A stretch of DNA of 22,019 nucleotides from a virus (taxonomy: Duplodnaviria; Heunggongvirae; Uroviricota; Caudoviricetes). A program made the translations under genes and the position numbers. The stretch lies in IMG/VR virus record IMGVR_UViG_2585427746_000008. One strand, given 5' to 3'. Below the pieces are notes generated by a model. The model made no database searches. It was not told the origin of the DNA and saw nothing but the letters and a program-made list of their open reading frames with translations. The first letter of the stretch is position 1. Every line of letters starts with the position of its first letter. Shown here piece by piece: positions 1-7,790 of the stretch.

Positions 1-984
1 ATGACGGCGAAAACAGCACCGAAAGTCACGCTGTGGGAGTTCTTCCAGCAGTTAGGCAAAACCTTCATGTTACCCGTGGCATTATTGTCGTTCTGCGGCA
101 TTATGCTCGGCATTGGTAGTTCTCTTAGCAGCCATGATGTCATAACCCTGATCCCGGTCCTGGGCAACCCCGTGTTGCAGGCTATCTTTACCTGGATGAG
201 TAAGATTGGCTCGTTTGCTTTTAGTTTCCTGCCTGTCATGTTCTGTATCGCCATCCCGCTGGGCCTGGCACGCGAAAATAAAGGCGTAGCGGCATTCGCT
301 GGCTTCATCGGTTATGCGGTAATGAACCTCGCGGTAAACTTCTGGTTGACCAATAAAGGCATTCTGCCAACCACGGATGCCGCGGTTCTGAAAGCCAATA
401 ACATCCAGAGCATTCTTGGGATCCAGTCGATCGATACCGGGATCCTCGGTGCGGTGATCGCCGGTATTATCGTCTGGATGCTGCATGAGCGTTTCCATAA
501 TATCCGCCTGCCGGATGCGCTGGCATTCTTCGGCGGTACGCGCTTCGTACCAATTATCTCCTCGCTGGTGATGGGCCTTGTCGGCCTGGTGATTCCATTA
601 GTCTGGCCGATTTTCGCCATGGGTATTAGCGGCTTGGGCCATATGATAAACAGCGCGGGTGATTTCGGACCGATGCTGTTTGGTACCGGTGAACGTCTGC
701 TGTTGCCGTTTGGTCTGCATCACATTCTGGTGGCATTAATTCGCTTTACCGACGCAGGCGGCACGCAGGAAGTCTGCGGTCAAACCGTCAGCGGCGCACT
801 GACCATCTTCCAGGCGCAATTGAGTTGCCCGACCACTCACGGTTTTTCTGAAAGCGCCACGCGTTTCCTTTCGCAAGGTAAAATGCCTGCGTTTCTCGGC
901 GGTCTGTGTAACCAGGTAAATCATTTGATACCGACAAGGGTTTTAGTGAAAGGAGGTGAAATCACCTGTAAGATACTGAAATAA
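1..984 (+). CDS. malX: PTS sugar transporter EIIC domain (MalX-like), N-terminal ~302 codons only; frame runs into phage DNA after ~nt 906 and stops at 984 (disrupted gene)
   Basis: ORF starts at nt 1 with MTAKTAPKVTLWEFFQQLGKTFMLPVALLSFCGIMLGIGSS, a polytopic membrane protein typical of glucose/maltose-family EIIC. From memory this matches E. coli MalX. The last ~25 codons (CNQVNHLIPTRVLVKGGEITCKILK) are unrelated and coincide with the start of phage-end repeats. Confidence 0.6.
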   Translation: MTAKTAPKVTLWEFFQQLGKTFMLPVALLSFCGIMLGIGSSLSSHDVITLIPVLGNPVLQAIFTWMSKIGSFAFSFLPVMFCIAIPLGLARENKGVAAFAGFIGYAVMNLAVNFWLTNKGILPTTDAAVLKANNIQSILGIQSIDTGILGAVIAGIIVWMLHERFHNIRLPDALAFFGGTRFVPIISSLVMGLVGLVIPLVWPIFAMGISGLGHMINSAGDFGPMLFGTGERLLLPFGLHHILVALIRFTDAGGTQEVCGQTVSGALTIFQAQLSCPTTHGFSESATRFLSQGKMPAFLGGLCNQVNHLIPTRVLVKGGEITCKILK

Positions 985-1946: not shown

Positions 1947-2192
1947 GTGAGTCTTATTGAAGATTGGTCTTCCGCCGATATAAAGGCAGCCTTAGAAAAA
2001 CGCGATACCAATTTGTCACGTTTATCAAGGGAAAATAATTTGCAGCCTAGGACTTTGGGTAATGCTTTGCGAGTTCCCTACCCTAAAGGTGAAAAGATAA
2101 TTGCTAGGGCTATAGGTGTAGAGCCACAGGTTATTTGGCCTACTAGATATGAACGACGTGCGCGGAGGAAATATGTGGGTTGCAATGACTGA
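1947..2192 (+). CDS. ner: Ner-like DNA-binding protein (Ner/Nlp family)
   Basis: 81-aa ORF with GTG start as first gene of the early operon. Resembles Mu Ner in size, position and motifs (LSRLSREN..., PKGEKIIA, PQVIWPTRY versus Mu PKGEQIIA, PEVIWPSRY). Confidence 0.8.
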   Translation: MSLIEDWSSADIKAALEKRDTNLSRLSRENNLQPRTLGNALRVPYPKGEKIIARAIGVEPQVIWPTRYERRARRKYVGCND

Positions 2193-4257
2193 ATTGATTT
2201 CATTCAGTGACCTACCTAGTTCTTTGGCAGGTCTGCACAAAAAAGCAAAGAGGGAAGCGTGGAAAACGCGGCTAAAACCAGGGGTAAAAGGGAAAGTTTT
2301 AGAGTGTGAAATAGGGGCTTTGCCTTTAACTGTTCAGCAGGCAGTACGCGAACGCTATGCCCTGCAACTGATGACGCAAAAAGCCGATGAATCACCGGCT
2401 CCGGTAGTGACAAAGGCCAGGCGCTCACCTGCCGTGGTTGATGCGGTGGAGGCATATCGCGGATCACCACAACTGATGCTCGAACGCCTCAATGCCCTGA
2501 CTGAAAACCAGCGCCAGGTGGCTGATGCACGAATCGCGATCGTCAGCGAAGTTCTGAAAGTCGCGCAACAACCTGGTTTCAGCTGTGCGAAGGCTATCCG
2601 GTTTATCGTTGACAACCTGGCACGTTCGCAACTGGACGAGCGCATTGTGGCAATGGTTGAGACGGCGAACGCCAAAAAGGGAAACAGCCGTGCGTTGAGT
2701 GAAATCACGCTGAAACGCTGGATTGCAGCCTTTAACAAGGCGCAGAACGCCGCTGAACGCCTGCTTTTGCTGGCACCTGGTAAGCGCCAGGAAATAAAAG
2801 CCGAAGATATTAACTGGCTGCCCGAATTTCTGGCGCAGTATCGCCAGTCAAACGGCCGACCAATGACCGAGGCTTACGAGGATTTTGTCGCTGAATGGCA
2901 GCACCGGCACGCTGATGAGCCTTATATGCTCGATATCATGCCGTCTTACGACACCATCCGCCGCGCAATGAAGAAACTGCCGGAAGTGGTGAAACAAAAA
3001 GGCCGGGTGACCGGCAGTGAATACCGCCAGCTTGAGGGATTCACGCGCCGCGACTGGTCCAGAATGCCGGTGAATTATGTCTGGATTGGTGACGGTCACG
3101 GCATGAAGCTGAAATGCAGGCACCCGGTTCACGGGCGGCCATTTGCACCGGAAGTGACCTTTGTTATCGACGGTGGCACGCGCTTTGTGGTGGGCTGGAG
3201 CCTTGACCTGGCTGAAAATGTTTTCGCCGTAGCCGGTGCCATACAGTACGGTATTCGTAATCACGGCAAACCGTTTCTGTATTACTCGGATAACGGTTCC
3301 GGGGAAACCGCCGACATCCTGGATAAGGAAGTTGTGGGGATCCTGCCGCGACTGGGGATTAATCACCCAACCGGGATTGCCGGTAACCCGCAGGGACGGG
3401 GCATTATCGAACGGCTTAACCGCACGTTACCGATGCGTATAGCCCGTAAATACCGCACCTATTTCGGGAAAGGTGCAGATCGCGAGACGTTACGCAAAAC
3501 CAACCGCGATTTACGCTCGGCATTTACCGCCCTGCAACAGGGCAAACGGCTGAACGCCCGGCAACAGTCAGCGATGCGTGATTTACCGTCCTGGTCTGAA
3601 CTGATTGATGCCATTCGTGATGGCGTTGAGTGGTACAACAACCGGCCGCACGATGAATTACCCATGAAGCCGAACGGGAAGCATTACAGCCCGGCGGAGT
3701 TCAGAAAAAAACGCCTGGCAGAAGAGGACACGGAAATTGAATGGCTGTCCGATGTTGAGCTGCGGGATATGTTCCGGCCAATGGTGGAACGCCCTGTAAG
3801 ACGCTGTGAAATACGCTGGCTGAATAATATTTACTACGCGCCCGAGCTGAGTGATGAGCATGGCCGCAAGGTGCTTATCAGCTATGACATTCATGATGCC
3901 GAACGAATTACCGTACGTCGCCCGGATGGCAGCGTGATTTGCGAGGCGGTATGGGACGGCAATAAACGCGAAGCCTTCCCGGTCAGCGCGGAATACTACA
4001 AACAGCAGCAACGCCTTAAAGGTATGCGTAAACGCGCAGAGGAAAAAATCCGTGATGCCGAGGATGAGGTTGTCAACGTGCTGGAGCACAAGCCGCAGGA
4101 GCCCTGGCTGGAAAACATATACCGCCCTGTGGGTAATACGGTGACCGTTCAGCAACCTGCCGTTGATGATGAGCCTGATGAAGAATACGAGCGTAATTTC
4201 CAGCGGGGATTGCAGTTGCTCGAAGCGAAATTAAAAGAAAATGACCCTCTGGCCTGA
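2173..4257 (+). CDS. DDE transposase (MuA-like)
   Basis: Roughly 695 aa. N-terminal winged-helix motif shared with the repressor. Catalytic-core-like motifs VWIGDGHG, YSDNGSGE and GRGIIERLNRTL are consistent with a D-D-E triad. GGAGG lies 4 nt upstream of ATG 2173; the gene overlaps the ner 3' end. Confidence 0.9.
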   Translation: MWVAMTELISFSDLPSSLAGLHKKAKREAWKTRLKPGVKGKVLECEIGALPLTVQQAVRERYALQLMTQKADESPAPVVTKARRSPAVVDAVEAYRGSPQLMLERLNALTENQRQVADARIAIVSEVLKVAQQPGFSCAKAIRFIVDNLARSQLDERIVAMVETANAKKGNSRALSEITLKRWIAAFNKAQNAAERLLLLAPGKRQEIKAEDINWLPEFLAQYRQSNGRPMTEAYEDFVAEWQHRHADEPYMLDIMPSYDTIRRAMKKLPEVVKQKGRVTGSEYRQLEGFTRRDWSRMPVNYVWIGDGHGMKLKCRHPVHGRPFAPEVTFVIDGGTRFVVGWSLDLAENVFAVAGAIQYGIRNHGKPFLYYSDNGSGETADILDKEVVGILPRLGINHPTGIAGNPQGRGIIERLNRTLPMRIARKYRTYFGKGADRETLRKTNRDLRSAFTALQQGKRLNARQQSAMRDLPSWSELIDAIRDGVEWYNNRPHDELPMKPNGKHYSPAEFRKKRLAEEDTEIEWLSDVELRDMFRPMVERPVRRCEIRWLNNIYYAPELSDEHGRKVLISYDIHDAERITVRRPDGSVICEAVWDGNKREAFPVSAEYYKQQQRLKGMRKRAEEKIRDAEDEVVNVLEHKPQEPWLENIYRPVGNTVTVQQPAVDDEPDEEYERNFQRGLQLLEAKLKENDPLA

Positions 4258-4334
4258 AATAAAAAAATAACCCGAGCGGCGACTCAGGTTATTTGATTAA
4301 ACTCGGAGAACTGTCTCAACGCGAGGTGAATAAT

Positions 4335-5267
4335 ATGACCGATATAAACGATGTAATCAAGACCATTGATGAACTTATTGATGGCGGCGTGCTGACGCAG
4401 TATGCCATCGCCAGAGAGGCGGGAATTTCCGACGGCACATTATCGGCTTTCCGCAAGGGGAAATATAAAGGCGATAACGCCGCTGTGGCTGCTTCCCTGC
4501 GCTCCTGGTATGAGAACTGGAATAAACAAAGCGCACTGCCGGAACCGCCGCAGTTTGTGGAAACTCAGACAGTCCAGGAGCTGCGCGCACTGTTTCAGGC
4601 GGTTCGCCTGATGGGCTGTATTAACGTTATTGTGGGCGTACCGGGTGTGGGTAAAACGGCCACTGCCCGTAATTACTGCCAGGAGCAACCAAACACCTGG
4701 ATGATCACCCTGTCACCCGCGCACTCCAGCGTCACGGAGTGTCTGCTGGAGCTGGCCGATGCGCTGGGGATTGATTACACCCGCGCGAACAAAGGGGCAT
4801 TATCCCGCGCCATCCGCCGTCGCCTGATGGGAACGCGTGGACTGGTGATTGTGGATGAGGCGGATCATCTTGGTATTGACGGTCTGGAGCAACTCCGGGC
4901 AATTCAGGACGCCACGGGGATCGGGATGGTGCTTATTGGTAACCCGCGCGGATTGTTTAAAGGTGGACGCCGCGCCTTTGATGATTTATCGCGCCTGTTC
5001 AGCCGTCTTGCCCGTACAAAACAACTTCGCAAGGCCAAAAAGGCGGATGTGCTGGCCATTGCCATGGCGTGGGGGATCAGTGGTGAGGCTGAGCTGGCCG
5101 TCATGCAGGCTATCGCTGAAAAGCCGGGAGCGTTACGCGTTCTGACACATACGCTTAACCAGGCGTGGCTCACCGCCAGCGGTGAAGGCGCGGCGCTGAC
5201 AGAAAAACATATTAATGCGGCCTTTAAAGAGGTTTATACCAACCCTGAATTACTCTCACAGGTGTGA
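4335..5267 (+). CDS. Transposition helper ATPase (MuB-like AAA+)
   Basis: Walker A motif GVPGVGKT and Walker B motif VIVDEADHL. Lies immediately downstream of the transposase. GAGGTGA RBS precedes ATG 4335; the ORF track start at 4293 lacks an RBS. Confidence 0.85.
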   Translation: MTDINDVIKTIDELIDGGVLTQYAIAREAGISDGTLSAFRKGKYKGDNAAVAASLRSWYENWNKQSALPEPPQFVETQTVQELRALFQAVRLMGCINVIVGVPGVGKTATARNYCQEQPNTWMITLSPAHSSVTECLLELADALGIDYTRANKGALSRAIRRRLMGTRGLVIVDEADHLGIDGLEQLRAIQDATGIGMVLIGNPRGLFKGGRRAFDDLSRLFSRLARTKQLRKAKKADVLAIAMAWGISGEAELAVMQAIAEKPGALRVLTHTLNQAWLTASGEGAALTEKHINAAFKEVYTNPELLSQV

Positions 5268-5269
5268 TT

Positions 5270-5491
5270 ATGGCGGTATTTAATATTCCTGATATTTACG
5301 GACGCTTTTACCTGGTTAATTTCGATAACGTGAAGGTGATTTCACTGGCCGAAAATAAAGAATGTGGCGATTTACTTTTTGAATTTAATGACCGCACACG
5401 AATGGTGATATCTGCCGGACTTGATCGCGAAGGTGCGACAGAAGTTTACAGCGGAATATGCCGTTCTGTTGGTGCGAAACAAGTCAGCTAA
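5270..5491 (+). CDS. hypothetical small early protein
   Basis: ORF with AGGTG RBS 7 nt upstream of ATG 5270; start is tightly packed against the B stop codon. Confidence 0.5.
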   Translation: MAVFNIPDIYGRFYLVNFDNVKVISLAENKECGDLLFEFNDRTRMVISAGLDREGATEVYSGICRSVGAKQVS

Positions 5492-5503
5492 ATGAGGTGT
5501 TAT

Positions 5504-5758
5504 ATGAATATGCAATCCTGCGGTAACAAAATGAATTTATTCGACTCCCTGAACAGCGCGCGCCGTCTGACCGAACTTGCCGGTGCGGTACTGGAACGCA
5601 GTAAGCGCTATCCGCAACGTTTTGCACTGAAAACCACGCCGCCGGTAGGCAACGTGCAGGGAACCGGTGAAATTGAAATCACCATACAGACCAACGGCCT
5701 GCGCCGCCGTGTGAAGGCCACCCGCATCAGCGGCTGCACGGTTTACTGGGAGGTGTGA
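5504..5758 (+). CDS. hypothetical small early protein
   Basis: ORF with AGGTG RBS 4 nt upstream of ATG 5504; same strand and tight packing as neighbours. Confidence 0.5.
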   Translation: MNMQSCGNKMNLFDSLNSARRLTELAGAVLERSKRYPQRFALKTTPPVGNVQGTGEIEITIQTNGLRRRVKATRISGCTVYWEV

Positions 5759-5759
5759 G

Positions 5760-5918
5760 GTGAAAAAAAATCTCATTGCATGGGCGTGGTCGAGTGGTCT
5801 TATTGAGTTTGGTTACGTCCTGCCGGAAGGTGCATTGCCGATAGTTGCCGGAAAGCCTGCCACGGTACGGCATGTGATTGAGGTTATGGCGCGTCATGGA
5901 CGTGATGAACAGGAGTAG
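5760..5918 (+). CDS. hypothetical small protein (52 codons, GTG start), possibly the N-terminal part of a longer gene interrupted by an in-frame TAG
   Basis: Not in the ORF track because it is under 60 aa. GTG at 5760 is preceded by AGGTGTGAGG. The same frame stays open for 40 more codons after TAG 5916-5918 and ends in a TGA that overlaps the next gene's ATG. Confidence 0.3.
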   Translation: MKKNLIAWAWSSGLIEFGYVLPEGALPIVAGKPATVRHVIEVMARHGRDEQE

Positions 5919-6037
5919 TTACTGGTTCCGGGGATACCGGAAGCGGTGACGGAGGAAGAAGCCTTTAATGCCATGATTCGGTTCTGCCGTGAGGTCAGAC
6001 GCCGGGTCAGTTATCCAAACAGAACGAGGACCAGAGG

Positions 6038-6310
6038 ATGAGTAAAGTCGTACGCATTATTTTCGAATACAAGGAGCACGTTATCCATAAAAACCCTGAT
6101 GGAACAGTGCGCATGGGGGTAAGTCTGGACATACGTTCAACCGGGATAAAGCAGAAAGGTGATGGACCCGCCATGATTTTTGGGGTGGTTATGCTCGCGG
6201 AAAGCAGAGACTTTGCTGAACTTGTAGCAATGAAAGCCAGTGCGCTCATGAAAGATATGAGCATGCGTTCCGGGGTTATTAAAGGTAATGAATTTAATCA
6301 GCAGGGGTAA
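6038..6310 (+). CDS. hypothetical early protein
   Basis: 90-aa ORF beginning MSKVVRIIFEY, in the early operon; its start overlaps the preceding TGA. Confidence 0.55.
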   Translation: MSKVVRIIFEYKEHVIHKNPDGTVRMGVSLDIRSTGIKQKGDGPAMIFGVVMLAESRDFAELVAMKASALMKDMSMRSGVIKGNEFNQQG

Positions 6311-6314
6311 TTCC

Positions 6315-6608
6315 ATGAGCAAAGTACGCGTTATTTTTGAATTTAATCATGTTTCGCATGACGAAAAGTTGGCAGGCAATGACTGTGTTGAAGTGCATGA
6401 AAAGATTGGAGTGGATGTGAAAACAGAACGTGATACGGATAACAGCCCGACGTCACTCTGTGACGTTTATGCAAGTATTCTCCAGTATCACAGTCCTGCA
6501 ATTATTCAGTTTCTCTCAGCGGAATTTCAGGCATCTGTACAGGCTTTTGGGGCGGATGCCATCATTAAACGCCACCGCGTGCATAAAGCATCAGGCACAC
6601 TGCAATAA
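6315..6608 (+). CDS. hypothetical early protein, paralogue-like to the preceding gene
   Basis: Begins MSKVRVIFEF, like the upstream neighbour's MSKVVRIIFEY. ATG 6315 follows the upstream stop closely. Confidence 0.55.
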   Translation: MSKVRVIFEFNHVSHDEKLAGNDCVEVHEKIGVDVKTERDTDNSPTSLCDVYASILQYHSPAIIQFLSAEFQASVQAFGADAIIKRHRVHKASGTLQ

Positions 6609-6619
6609 GGAAAAACAAA

Positions 6620-7150
6620 ATGGCTAAACGCGTTACAAAATTAAAGGCCGCAGCCGAGGCGGCACCGCAGACCCGGGAAGAAGTCAGTCGCGATATCCGT
6701 CGCTTTGGGGATATGCAGCGAGAGGCGCTGCGCCTGGAAACGGCAATGAATGATGAAGTGGCAGAAATCACCGCCCGTTATACGCCGCAGATTGAAAACC
6801 TTAAAAAAGAAATCAAAGTGCTTTTTAAGGGGATTCATGACTGGTGCAAAACCAACCGCGATGAGCTGACGAACGGTGGCGAAACCAAAACTGCCAATCT
6901 GACAACCGGAACGGTGTCATGGCGGCTGGAAAAGCCATCATGCAGCGTCAGCCGTGATGTGGAAGGTGTGATTGAAATGCTGCGCCGTATGGGGCTTGAG
7001 CGTTTCATCCGCACGAAAGAGGAAGTGAATAAGCAAGCCATTCTGGCGGAACCGGATGCGGTAAAGGGTATTGCCGGTATTAAGGTGAATAAAGGCGCTG
7101 AAAGTTTTTCTGTCGAGCCTTTTGAACAGGACGCCGGACTGAATAAATAA
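6620..7150 (+). CDS. gam: Gam-like host-nuclease inhibitor (Mu Gam / Ku-like DNA end-binding)
   Basis: 176 aa with blocks recalled from Mu Gam: MAK...K..AA, LRLETAMNDEVAEIT, NRDELTNGG, TANLTTGTVSWR, LERFIRTKEEVNK. AAGGAAA RBS upstream. Confidence 0.85.
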   Translation: MAKRVTKLKAAAEAAPQTREEVSRDIRRFGDMQREALRLETAMNDEVAEITARYTPQIENLKKEIKVLFKGIHDWCKTNRDELTNGGETKTANLTTGTVSWRLEKPSCSVSRDVEGVIEMLRRMGLERFIRTKEEVNKQAILAEPDAVKGIAGIKVNKGAESFSVEPFEQDAGLNK

Positions 7151-7247
7151 CACCGCATTAAATCTTTAGATATCACATTGTTTTAATTATGGCGCTCGCG
7201 TCAGAGGGCTGCTTGCGCCTGTAAACTGAAAATAAGGAACAGGAAAT

Positions 7248-7790
7248 ATGGCATATTTTTATTTCAAATTAGACAGAGCACAGACAAATAAATATTTCAC
7301 CAAATATCAACAGACTGTTTTACCGCTACGCAACAGTATTCTTCGGACGTTACTGAAAAATACAGGCGCTGCCGGATTGCGCTTAAAGCCGTTCGCCATG
7401 GACAGAATCAGTGAGTTTTATTTTGCCGGTGCTCTGCCTGCGGGCTGGCGTAAGCGCGATGATGTGGCTTTTATCGGTAGCGGACAGTGCTTTATAGCCA
7501 GACCTGATGAGTCATGCCCTGAAGGACCGGCGATTGCCACAATGGTTGAAGCCGCTGAACGCGATTTAAGAAAGCGACCTGATTTCCTTGTCTGGCTCTG
7601 TGAAAAGCTGGGGGTAATGAGAATGCCCTCCATGTTTAACACAGACTCCTGGTGGACCCCGTCTCTCTCCCGTGATGCCCTGTGCGTGGTGTTTAAAGTA
7701 GGTGCTTATGGCAGGGAAATAAACGGGCGTATTCCTGAAGAATGTCAGGAAATTAAACATTCTGAATATGTGGCGCTGACGGAGGAATAA
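7248..7790 (+). CDS. hypothetical protein, first gene of a translationally coupled four-gene cassette
   Basis: 180-aa ORF with AGGAACAGGAAAT RBS, following a 97-bp gap after gam. No family recognised. Confidence 0.55.
   Translation: MAYFYFKLDRAQTNKYFTKYQQTVLPLRNSILRTLLKNTGAAGLRLKPFAMDRISEFYFAGALPAGWRKRDDVAFIGSGQCFIARPDESCPEGPAIATMVEAAERDLRKRPDFLVWLCEKLGVMRMPSMFNTDSWWTPSLSRDALCVVFKVGAYGREINGRIPEECQEIKHSEYVALTEE

Follow-up and report, generated by a model that had tools for sequence, protein, structure and literature searches.

Genes A and B, two adjacent small genes in the early region of a Mu-like prophage of E. coli, are probably two diverged members of one family of small early proteins (about 90-100 aa) in Mu-like prophages, in which B would be the ancestral gene. 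This reading links phrog_4107 and phrog_2230, two catalogued families of hypothetical proteins, and names the ancestral member; the pair also offers a small and clean case, from the accessory early region of transposable phages, in which gene copy number and the exchange of alleles are shaped by a short repeat within the coding sequence at gene starts. On present evidence, A and B form an ordinary diverged duplication in a common E. coli prophage, and the pair bears on no long-standing open question. Two small points stand out: the first strand is conserved at the protein level, and the doubled gene start is involved in deletions and in the exchange of alleles.

The analysed window (the whole stretch of 22,019 nt) holds an E. 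coli prophage of the Mu-like, Sp18 type, with homologues of MuA, MuB, Kil, Gam, gp11, gp12, GemA and Mor (Table 1). Genes A and B are placed between MuB/Kil and Gam, a stretch that corresponds to the semi-essential early region on the Mu map. The ATG of gene A and the TGA that ends the upstream gene overlap (ATGA), 4 nt separate A from B, and gene B is directly upstream of gam. A scan of positions 5200-7400 predicted no promoter or terminator on the + strand, and both genes are therefore likely to lie within a long early transcript. Gene B is unlikely to start at the in-frame ATG further upstream, at 6288, because the complete N-termini of the family nearly all begin with MSK and an AGGGG is found 7 nt before 6315.

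Table 1. Features in the window around genes A and B, and the Mu gene compared with them
Feature	Position	Strand	Remarks
Host PTS EIIC gene	1-984		Window start, reaching the prophage left end
Mu-type repressor	1212-1730	minus
Ner	1947-2192
MuA	2149-4257
MuB	4293-5267		Followed by a 75-aa ORF
Kil-like gene	5492-5758
phrog_1518 gene	5760-6041	+	RefSeq 'host nuclease inhibitor protein'; upstream neighbour of gene A
Likely Shine-Dalgarno of gene A, GAGG	6026-6029	+	8 nt 5' of the ATG; inferred by reading the sequence
Gene A	6038-6310	+	90 aa, begins MSKVVRIIFEYKEH; ATG 6038, TAA 6308-6310
5' repeat, copy 1	6038-6068	+	Codons 1-10 of A and first base of codon 11; MSKVVRIIFE
Microhomology TTTTGGGG, 8 nt	6178-6185 in A, 6545-6552 in B	+	Joint of the P0036 fusion
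Likely Shine-Dalgarno of gene B, AGGGG	6303-6307	+	Within the 3' end of A, 7 nt before 6315; read from the sequence
Gene B	6315-6608	+	97 aa, begins MSKVRVIFEFNH; ATG 6315, TAA 6606-6608
5' repeat, copy 2	6315-6342	+	Codons 1-9 of B and first base of codon 10; MSKVRVIFE
gam (Mu Gam-like DNA-end-binding protein)	6620-7150	+	Pfam PF07352, E 4e-40; 57% identity to Mu Gam
gp11-, gp12-, GemA- and Mor-like genes, lysozyme			Downstream of gam
Mu gp7/E6	4784-5047 of L001		Family alignment A3

Genes A and B are already catalogued, as both match a PHROG family over its full length: residues 1-90 of A cover profile positions 1-90 of 90 in phrog_4107 (E 4.4e-61), and residues 3-97 of B cover positions 1-88 of 89 in phrog_2230 (E 1.3e-38). 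Both families are listed by PHROGs under 'unknown function', and RefSeq names the products as hypothetical proteins. PHROGs keeps the two families separate, and neither the link between A and B nor the restriction of A to E. coli appears in the annotations seen. Among 5426 complete E. coli genomes, the body of gene A was found at 271 places in 228 genomes and gene B at 274 places in 232 genomes, so that A almost always accompanies B. In a word-indexed search, the homologues of A were confined to E. coli, with at least 73% identity, and the B family was likewise found in E. coli only, with at least 76% identity among full-length members. The 1.5 kb round the two genes shares 95-97% identity with most of the Mu-like prophages of the 232 genomes; many of the carriers are O157:H7 and other STEC strains, and two Stx-phage records annotate the corresponding stretch as a Mu-like phage insertion. 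An apparent A homologue with 47% identity (locus L044) was rejected as a divergent relative, being frameshifted in a poor assembly.

The original prediction held that the products of A and B begin almost identically and then diverge, and the comparison bears out both statements. The N-termini MSKVVRIIFEY (A) and MSKVRVIFEF (B) keep the first ten residues almost unchanged, and the N-terminal 12-mers reach a BLOSUM62 local score of 36, while 1378 ORF pairs of the same window gave a mean of 9.8 (sd 3.3) and a maximum of 26. The N-terminal likeness is thus far above chance. The motif [IVL][RQKH][IVL][IVL]F[ETDQ][FY] occurs exactly twice in the six frames of the window, at the starts of A and B. 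In the DNA, the shared start is a direct repeat in which 25 of 28 aligned bases are identical apart from a one-codon indel; the three mismatches comprise two synonymous changes and one conservative Ile/Val replacement, and an extra synonymous difference lies at the codon indel. Past the start the two products part company, and BLASTP of the window pair aligns residues 1-17 alone (11/17 identical, E 0.004 in a single comparison).

The homology between A and B appears to exceed the first ten residues, which makes a diverged tandem pair the preferred reading. With narrow, E. coli-only family profiles of A and B (A1 and A2), hhalign gave E 8e-6 over 42 columns; with their first 11 residues cut off, these profiles showed no significant similarity (E 0.22), and distant orthologues of B were therefore sought. 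An exhaustive representative search with gene B yielded five of them (P0098 and P0100-P0103), with 93-98 aa and 25-30% identity. A, B and every distant orthologue share the strand motif M-S/K-x-x-V/A-Q/R-V/I-I/L-F-T/E-F/Y, and the distant orthologues conserve the peptide QV[IL]FTFE. Against the broad B profile (A4) that includes the N-terminus, A1 was matched with 87% probability and E 3.7e-6 over 72 columns. When the first 11 residues were cut from both, the E value was 0.0025 with the register unchanged, a score that was reached by 3 of 300 column shuffles. Compared with the distant B orthologues alone, A gave E 3.7e-4 over its full length and 0.0035 minus the N-terminus.

The broad-profile match keeps its register as far as residue 65-80, with an identity of about 23-25%, and the second strand and loop are alike in A and the distant orthologues (GVSLDIRSTGIK..GDGP against GISVRVRSQGLS..KCGP). 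In addition, B occurs in two allele classes, B1 and B2, and BLASTP of A against the B2 allele gave 23% identity over 86 aa, while A alleles aligned colinearly with B2, P0098 or P0103 over 70-86 residues at 23-27% identity. Gene A had no match to the phrog_2230 HMM at E <= 1. The signal beyond the N-terminus, p about 0.003-0.01 in these sequence comparisons, is modest, and it gives modest support to A and B as true, distant homologues across two thirds of their length or more, counted from the N-terminus; the case for deep homology stays modest because the direct comparison and the narrow profiles are blank past residue 11-17. The proposed tandem duplication with later diversification is partly supported, with moderate confidence: the broad profiles favour a diverged homologous pair, and the direct pairwise alignment of the window pair stops at residue 17.

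Confidence is low in both AlphaFold models (mean pLDDT 64 for A and 59 for B), and both begin with a long beta-hairpin of the same length at the same position, with strands E4-18 and E24-38 in A and E4-20 and E24-39 in B and a local pLDDT of 73-79. The C-terminal halves of these low-confidence models differ, with a beta-alpha-beta arrangement in A and two helices in B. The conserved decapeptide would form the first strand of an N-terminal beta-hairpin that A and B probably have in common.

The strongest competing explanation, to which we give about one chance in four, is that only the 5' ends are related and A is a chimera of the N-terminal decapeptide of B and a foreign body. An unrelated gene could have entered the ancestral B within its first ~30 nt, or beside them, and thereby duplicated the ribosome-loading region and ten codons. 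The loss of the narrow-profile match without the N-terminus, the end of the window-pair alignment at residue 17 and the different C-terminal secondary structures all fit such an event, and so do two features described below, namely that in this prophage family the gene junctions stand out by nucleotide conservation and serve as boundaries of recombination, and that a B allele swap falls exactly after codon 10. Against it stand the in-register similarity to residue 65-80, which is found with the broader profiles and with the distant orthologues alone, and the predicted hairpin, which spans ~38 residues in A and B and not merely 10. Moreover, the searches found no donor family for the body of A.

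Under the preferred reading of a diverged pair, the distant orthologues also suggest which copy is the older one. B orthologues are single-copy, without A, in Citrobacter braakii and other enterobacterial Mu-like prophages; a scan of genome contigs with the distant orthologues as queries found Citrobacter braakii alone. All of these single-copy genes lie directly before Gam or, in many cases, before a DUF3164 gene that replaces Gam, and where the relative has a phrog_1518-like gene they start by an ATGA overlap on it. The two features, adjacency to gam or DUF3164 and an overlapping start, are united in one gene among the single-copy relatives and split between B and A in the prophage studied here. 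In addition, A retains the ancestral spacing of four residues ahead of the V-x-[VI]-I-F strand, while B is one codon shorter. B appears from these comparisons to be the ancestral gene, and A an added copy that took over the old 5' end, since A is E. coli-only, the B orthologues are single-copy and A holds the ancestral start context. A might have arisen by duplication in situ or by unequal recombination with another Mu-like phage, whose very divergent allele would have been captured in tandem; the A family cannot be placed in a tree because it has no distant relatives. As a side observation, the slot after the B orthologue outside E. coli holds either Gam or a 212-aa DUF3164 protein, apparently as alternative cassettes (L086, L090-L095, L097, L098, L100 and L101 versus L088, L096 and L099).

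The course of events suggested by this arrangement would begin with a second copy, A, arising upstream of B in the Sp18-type lineage of E. coli, with both genes transcribed together, between MuB/Kil and Gam, as part of the long early operon. A would have kept the ancestral start context, that is, the ATGA overlap and the four residues before the V-x-[VI]-I-F strand, while B would have become one codon shorter and gained a new ribosome-binding site within the 3' end of A. The C-terminal halves of the two proteins presumably diverged thereafter, the decapeptide would be held by purifying selection at the protein level, and the 28-31 nt direct repeat could recombine, providing a junction for deletion of A and a boundary for the exchange of divergent B alleles.

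Selection was compared in 18 distinct A and 23 distinct B sequences. Codons 1-11 of A have a pS of 0.18, as in the rest of the gene, a pN of 0.008 and a pN/pS of 0.05, and the constraint on the start of A thus acts on the peptide, as synonymous sites vary there while replacement sites hardly do. The N-terminal peptide of A is under strong protein-level purifying selection, and purifying selection is relaxed in the rest of A and B, with a pN/pS of 0.27-0.54 outside the N-terminus. Neither gene shows a gene-wide sign of positive selection there, and these ratios lend no support to the suggestion that the pair is driven apart by diversifying selection.

The start of B behaves differently. Codons 1-10 of B show a pS of 0.016-0.027, a pN of 0.000 and a pN/pS of 0.00; between B1 and B2 alleles the pS is likewise 0.016-0.027 in codons 1-10 and reaches 0.5-0.6 in the remaining codons. 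Among 26 distinct sequences, nucleotide diversity is 0-0.05 at the junctions 6006-6065, 6288-6345 and 6603-6650, about 0 across 6303-6332, and 0.1-0.23 inside the genes. The almost invariant start of B across alleles, together with the diversity minima at the three junctions, points to a boundary of allele exchange, and the start of B marks either such an allele-swap boundary or conservation at the nucleotide level.

The second of these possibilities, extended to both genes, would mean that the shared start is preserved for a role of its nucleotides and not for the peptide, for example, as a DNA site bound by a protein, as a structured RNA or as an element for the initiation or coupling of translation. 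We consider this unlikely as the explanation of the resemblance. The near absence of synonymous change in the first 30 nt of B and the preceding ~25 nt and the three diversity minima within 6000-6650 speak for it, whereas codons 1-11 of A vary synonymously as freely as the rest of that gene and A and B differ purely synonymously at 3 of the 9 shared codons. Furthermore, RNA structure at the gene junctions was no better than in shuffled controls (z -0.45, +1.1 and +0.3), and what the distant orthologues conserve is the peptide.

The diverged pair also carries traces of exchange and loss at its repeated 5' end. The B1 and B2 alleles share about 60% protein identity and are essentially identical in their first 30 nt, and a B allele swap with its breakpoint right after codon 10 is deduced from this contrast (the classes are listed at L076-L084 and L002). 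In prophage CI5, which lacks A, the sequence upstream of A is joined to B at ATGAG, and a viral contig (L082) is identical. The kil gene, the B2 allele, gam and the next gene of CI5 are 97-98% identical to those of tandem-bearing prophages and nested among them, and a deletion of A would be the economical reading of this arrangement. STEC299 holds a single gene in which an A-type 5' end (AGT and the extra codon) is joined at GTACGC to a B-type body (MSKIVRVIFEF...). This strain is an outlier, flanks included, with 87-92% identity in the A/B region, and its single gene may represent either a deletion or the ancestral single-copy state. One E. coli contig carries an in-frame fusion of A(1-49) and B(80-97), P0036, joined at an 8-nt microhomology within the gene bodies (Table 1). 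The 28-31 nt repeat takes part in recombination: at least one natural deletion of A, that of CI5, appears to have its junction there, and the B allele swap is bounded by it. Chance as the source of the resemblance can be set aside as highly improbable, even if MSK is a common start in bacterial and phage proteins and the direct pairwise E value is only 0.004, given the margin over the window-wide maximum score, the adjacency of the two genes, a motif that does not vary within either family and persists in distant orthologues, and natural recombinants that join A and B inside the repeat.

As has been described for lambdoid phages, the genomes of temperate phages are mosaic, with recombination joints at gene boundaries. 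The A/B region resembles these mosaics in that diversity minima, allele swaps and deletion ends lie at gene junctions. It differs from them in that the conserved junction extends 30 nt into coding sequence and is tandemly doubled, and in that one copy of the repeat is demonstrably under selection at the protein level.

Searches for a function found none. Pfam had no match for A or B, the best NCBIfam match was a cytochrome model with E 0.092, far below its cutoff, and a sequence search of the PDB with A and B returned nothing meaningful. Foldseek against BFVD gave E values of at least 0.011, with no Mu protein among the 50 best matches listed, and such fold searches are weak tests since the models of A and B are of low confidence. 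Literature searches found nothing on the two ORFs. As for the anti-defence activity or toxicity that had been suggested for the pair, the libraries searched showed no sequence tie to described anti-defence proteins, and no link to toxicity was found for A or B. A and B would most likely be non-essential early accessory (host-interaction) proteins, presenting differing C-terminal surfaces on a common N-terminal scaffold. If a function is found, the pair would provide a natural experiment, in which one N-terminal strand is combined with different bodies.

Phage Mu itself contains small ORFs in the corresponding place, gp6-gp9 (formerly E5-E8), which like A and B lie between B/kil and gam. Among them, gp7/E6 is of similar size (87 aa), has no known function, and belongs to a family that repeats the pattern of A and B, with an invariant decapeptide at the N-terminus (MAKVIIEIKN) ahead of a variable body; unlike B, it is not adjacent to gam. 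Mu gp7 matched phrog_2230 weakly (E 0.009, residues 1-78 of 87), neither A nor B matched the HMM of phrog_10252, the gp7/E6 family, and hhalign of the gp7 family was not significant against A (E 0.33-0.45) or B (E 0.15-0.64). The gene resembles A by eye and was rejected as a homologue of A on the former values; it is possibly a distant relative.

The short conserved hydrophobic segment at the extreme N-terminus also loosely recalls Mor and C of Mu, which carry N-terminal beta-clamp-binding motifs with the consensus QL[SD]LF (PMC12867686). These, too, are small proteins of the Mu family, and the QV[IL]FTF of the distant B orthologues comes near in form. A and B of E. coli have R in place of Q, however, and their segment is predicted to be a beta-strand in a hairpin and not a free peptide. 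A beta-clamp-binding motif was rejected for A and B, as their VRIIFEY and VRVIFEF, like the QVIFTFE of the distant orthologues, do not fit the consensus.

A more speculative view, which we hold to be improbable, joins the two conserved aspects of the start, so that the decapeptide is a docking strand for one common partner and the duplicated 5' end is the boundary of a recombination cassette. A, B, their orthologues and perhaps Mu gp7 would then bind one host or phage partner, for instance, by beta-strand addition, while the fast-evolving remainder of each protein would carry different activities. Effectors could in this manner be gained, lost and swapped with no disturbance to the translation of the operon.

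The gene upstream of A is itself variable. In the window, the phrog_1518 gene is split by an in-frame TAG at 5916-5918 (CAG to TAG), which was seen in none of 15 other distinct upstream sequences from related loci; translational coupling to A might be affected by this TAG, because the start of A overlaps the normal stop of the phrog_1518 gene. In 8 of 22 upstream contexts nearly all of the phrog_1518 gene is deleted, and the stop of Kil is then followed by a short remnant. Loci L015, L030, L014, L020, L028 and L039 are listed for deletions upstream of gene A, and in L005 a deletion fuses the 75-aa ORF to the C-terminus of the phrog_1518 gene, with loss of kil. The last ~14 codons of the phrog_1518 gene, which include the likely Shine-Dalgarno of gene A, are kept in all 22 upstream contexts.
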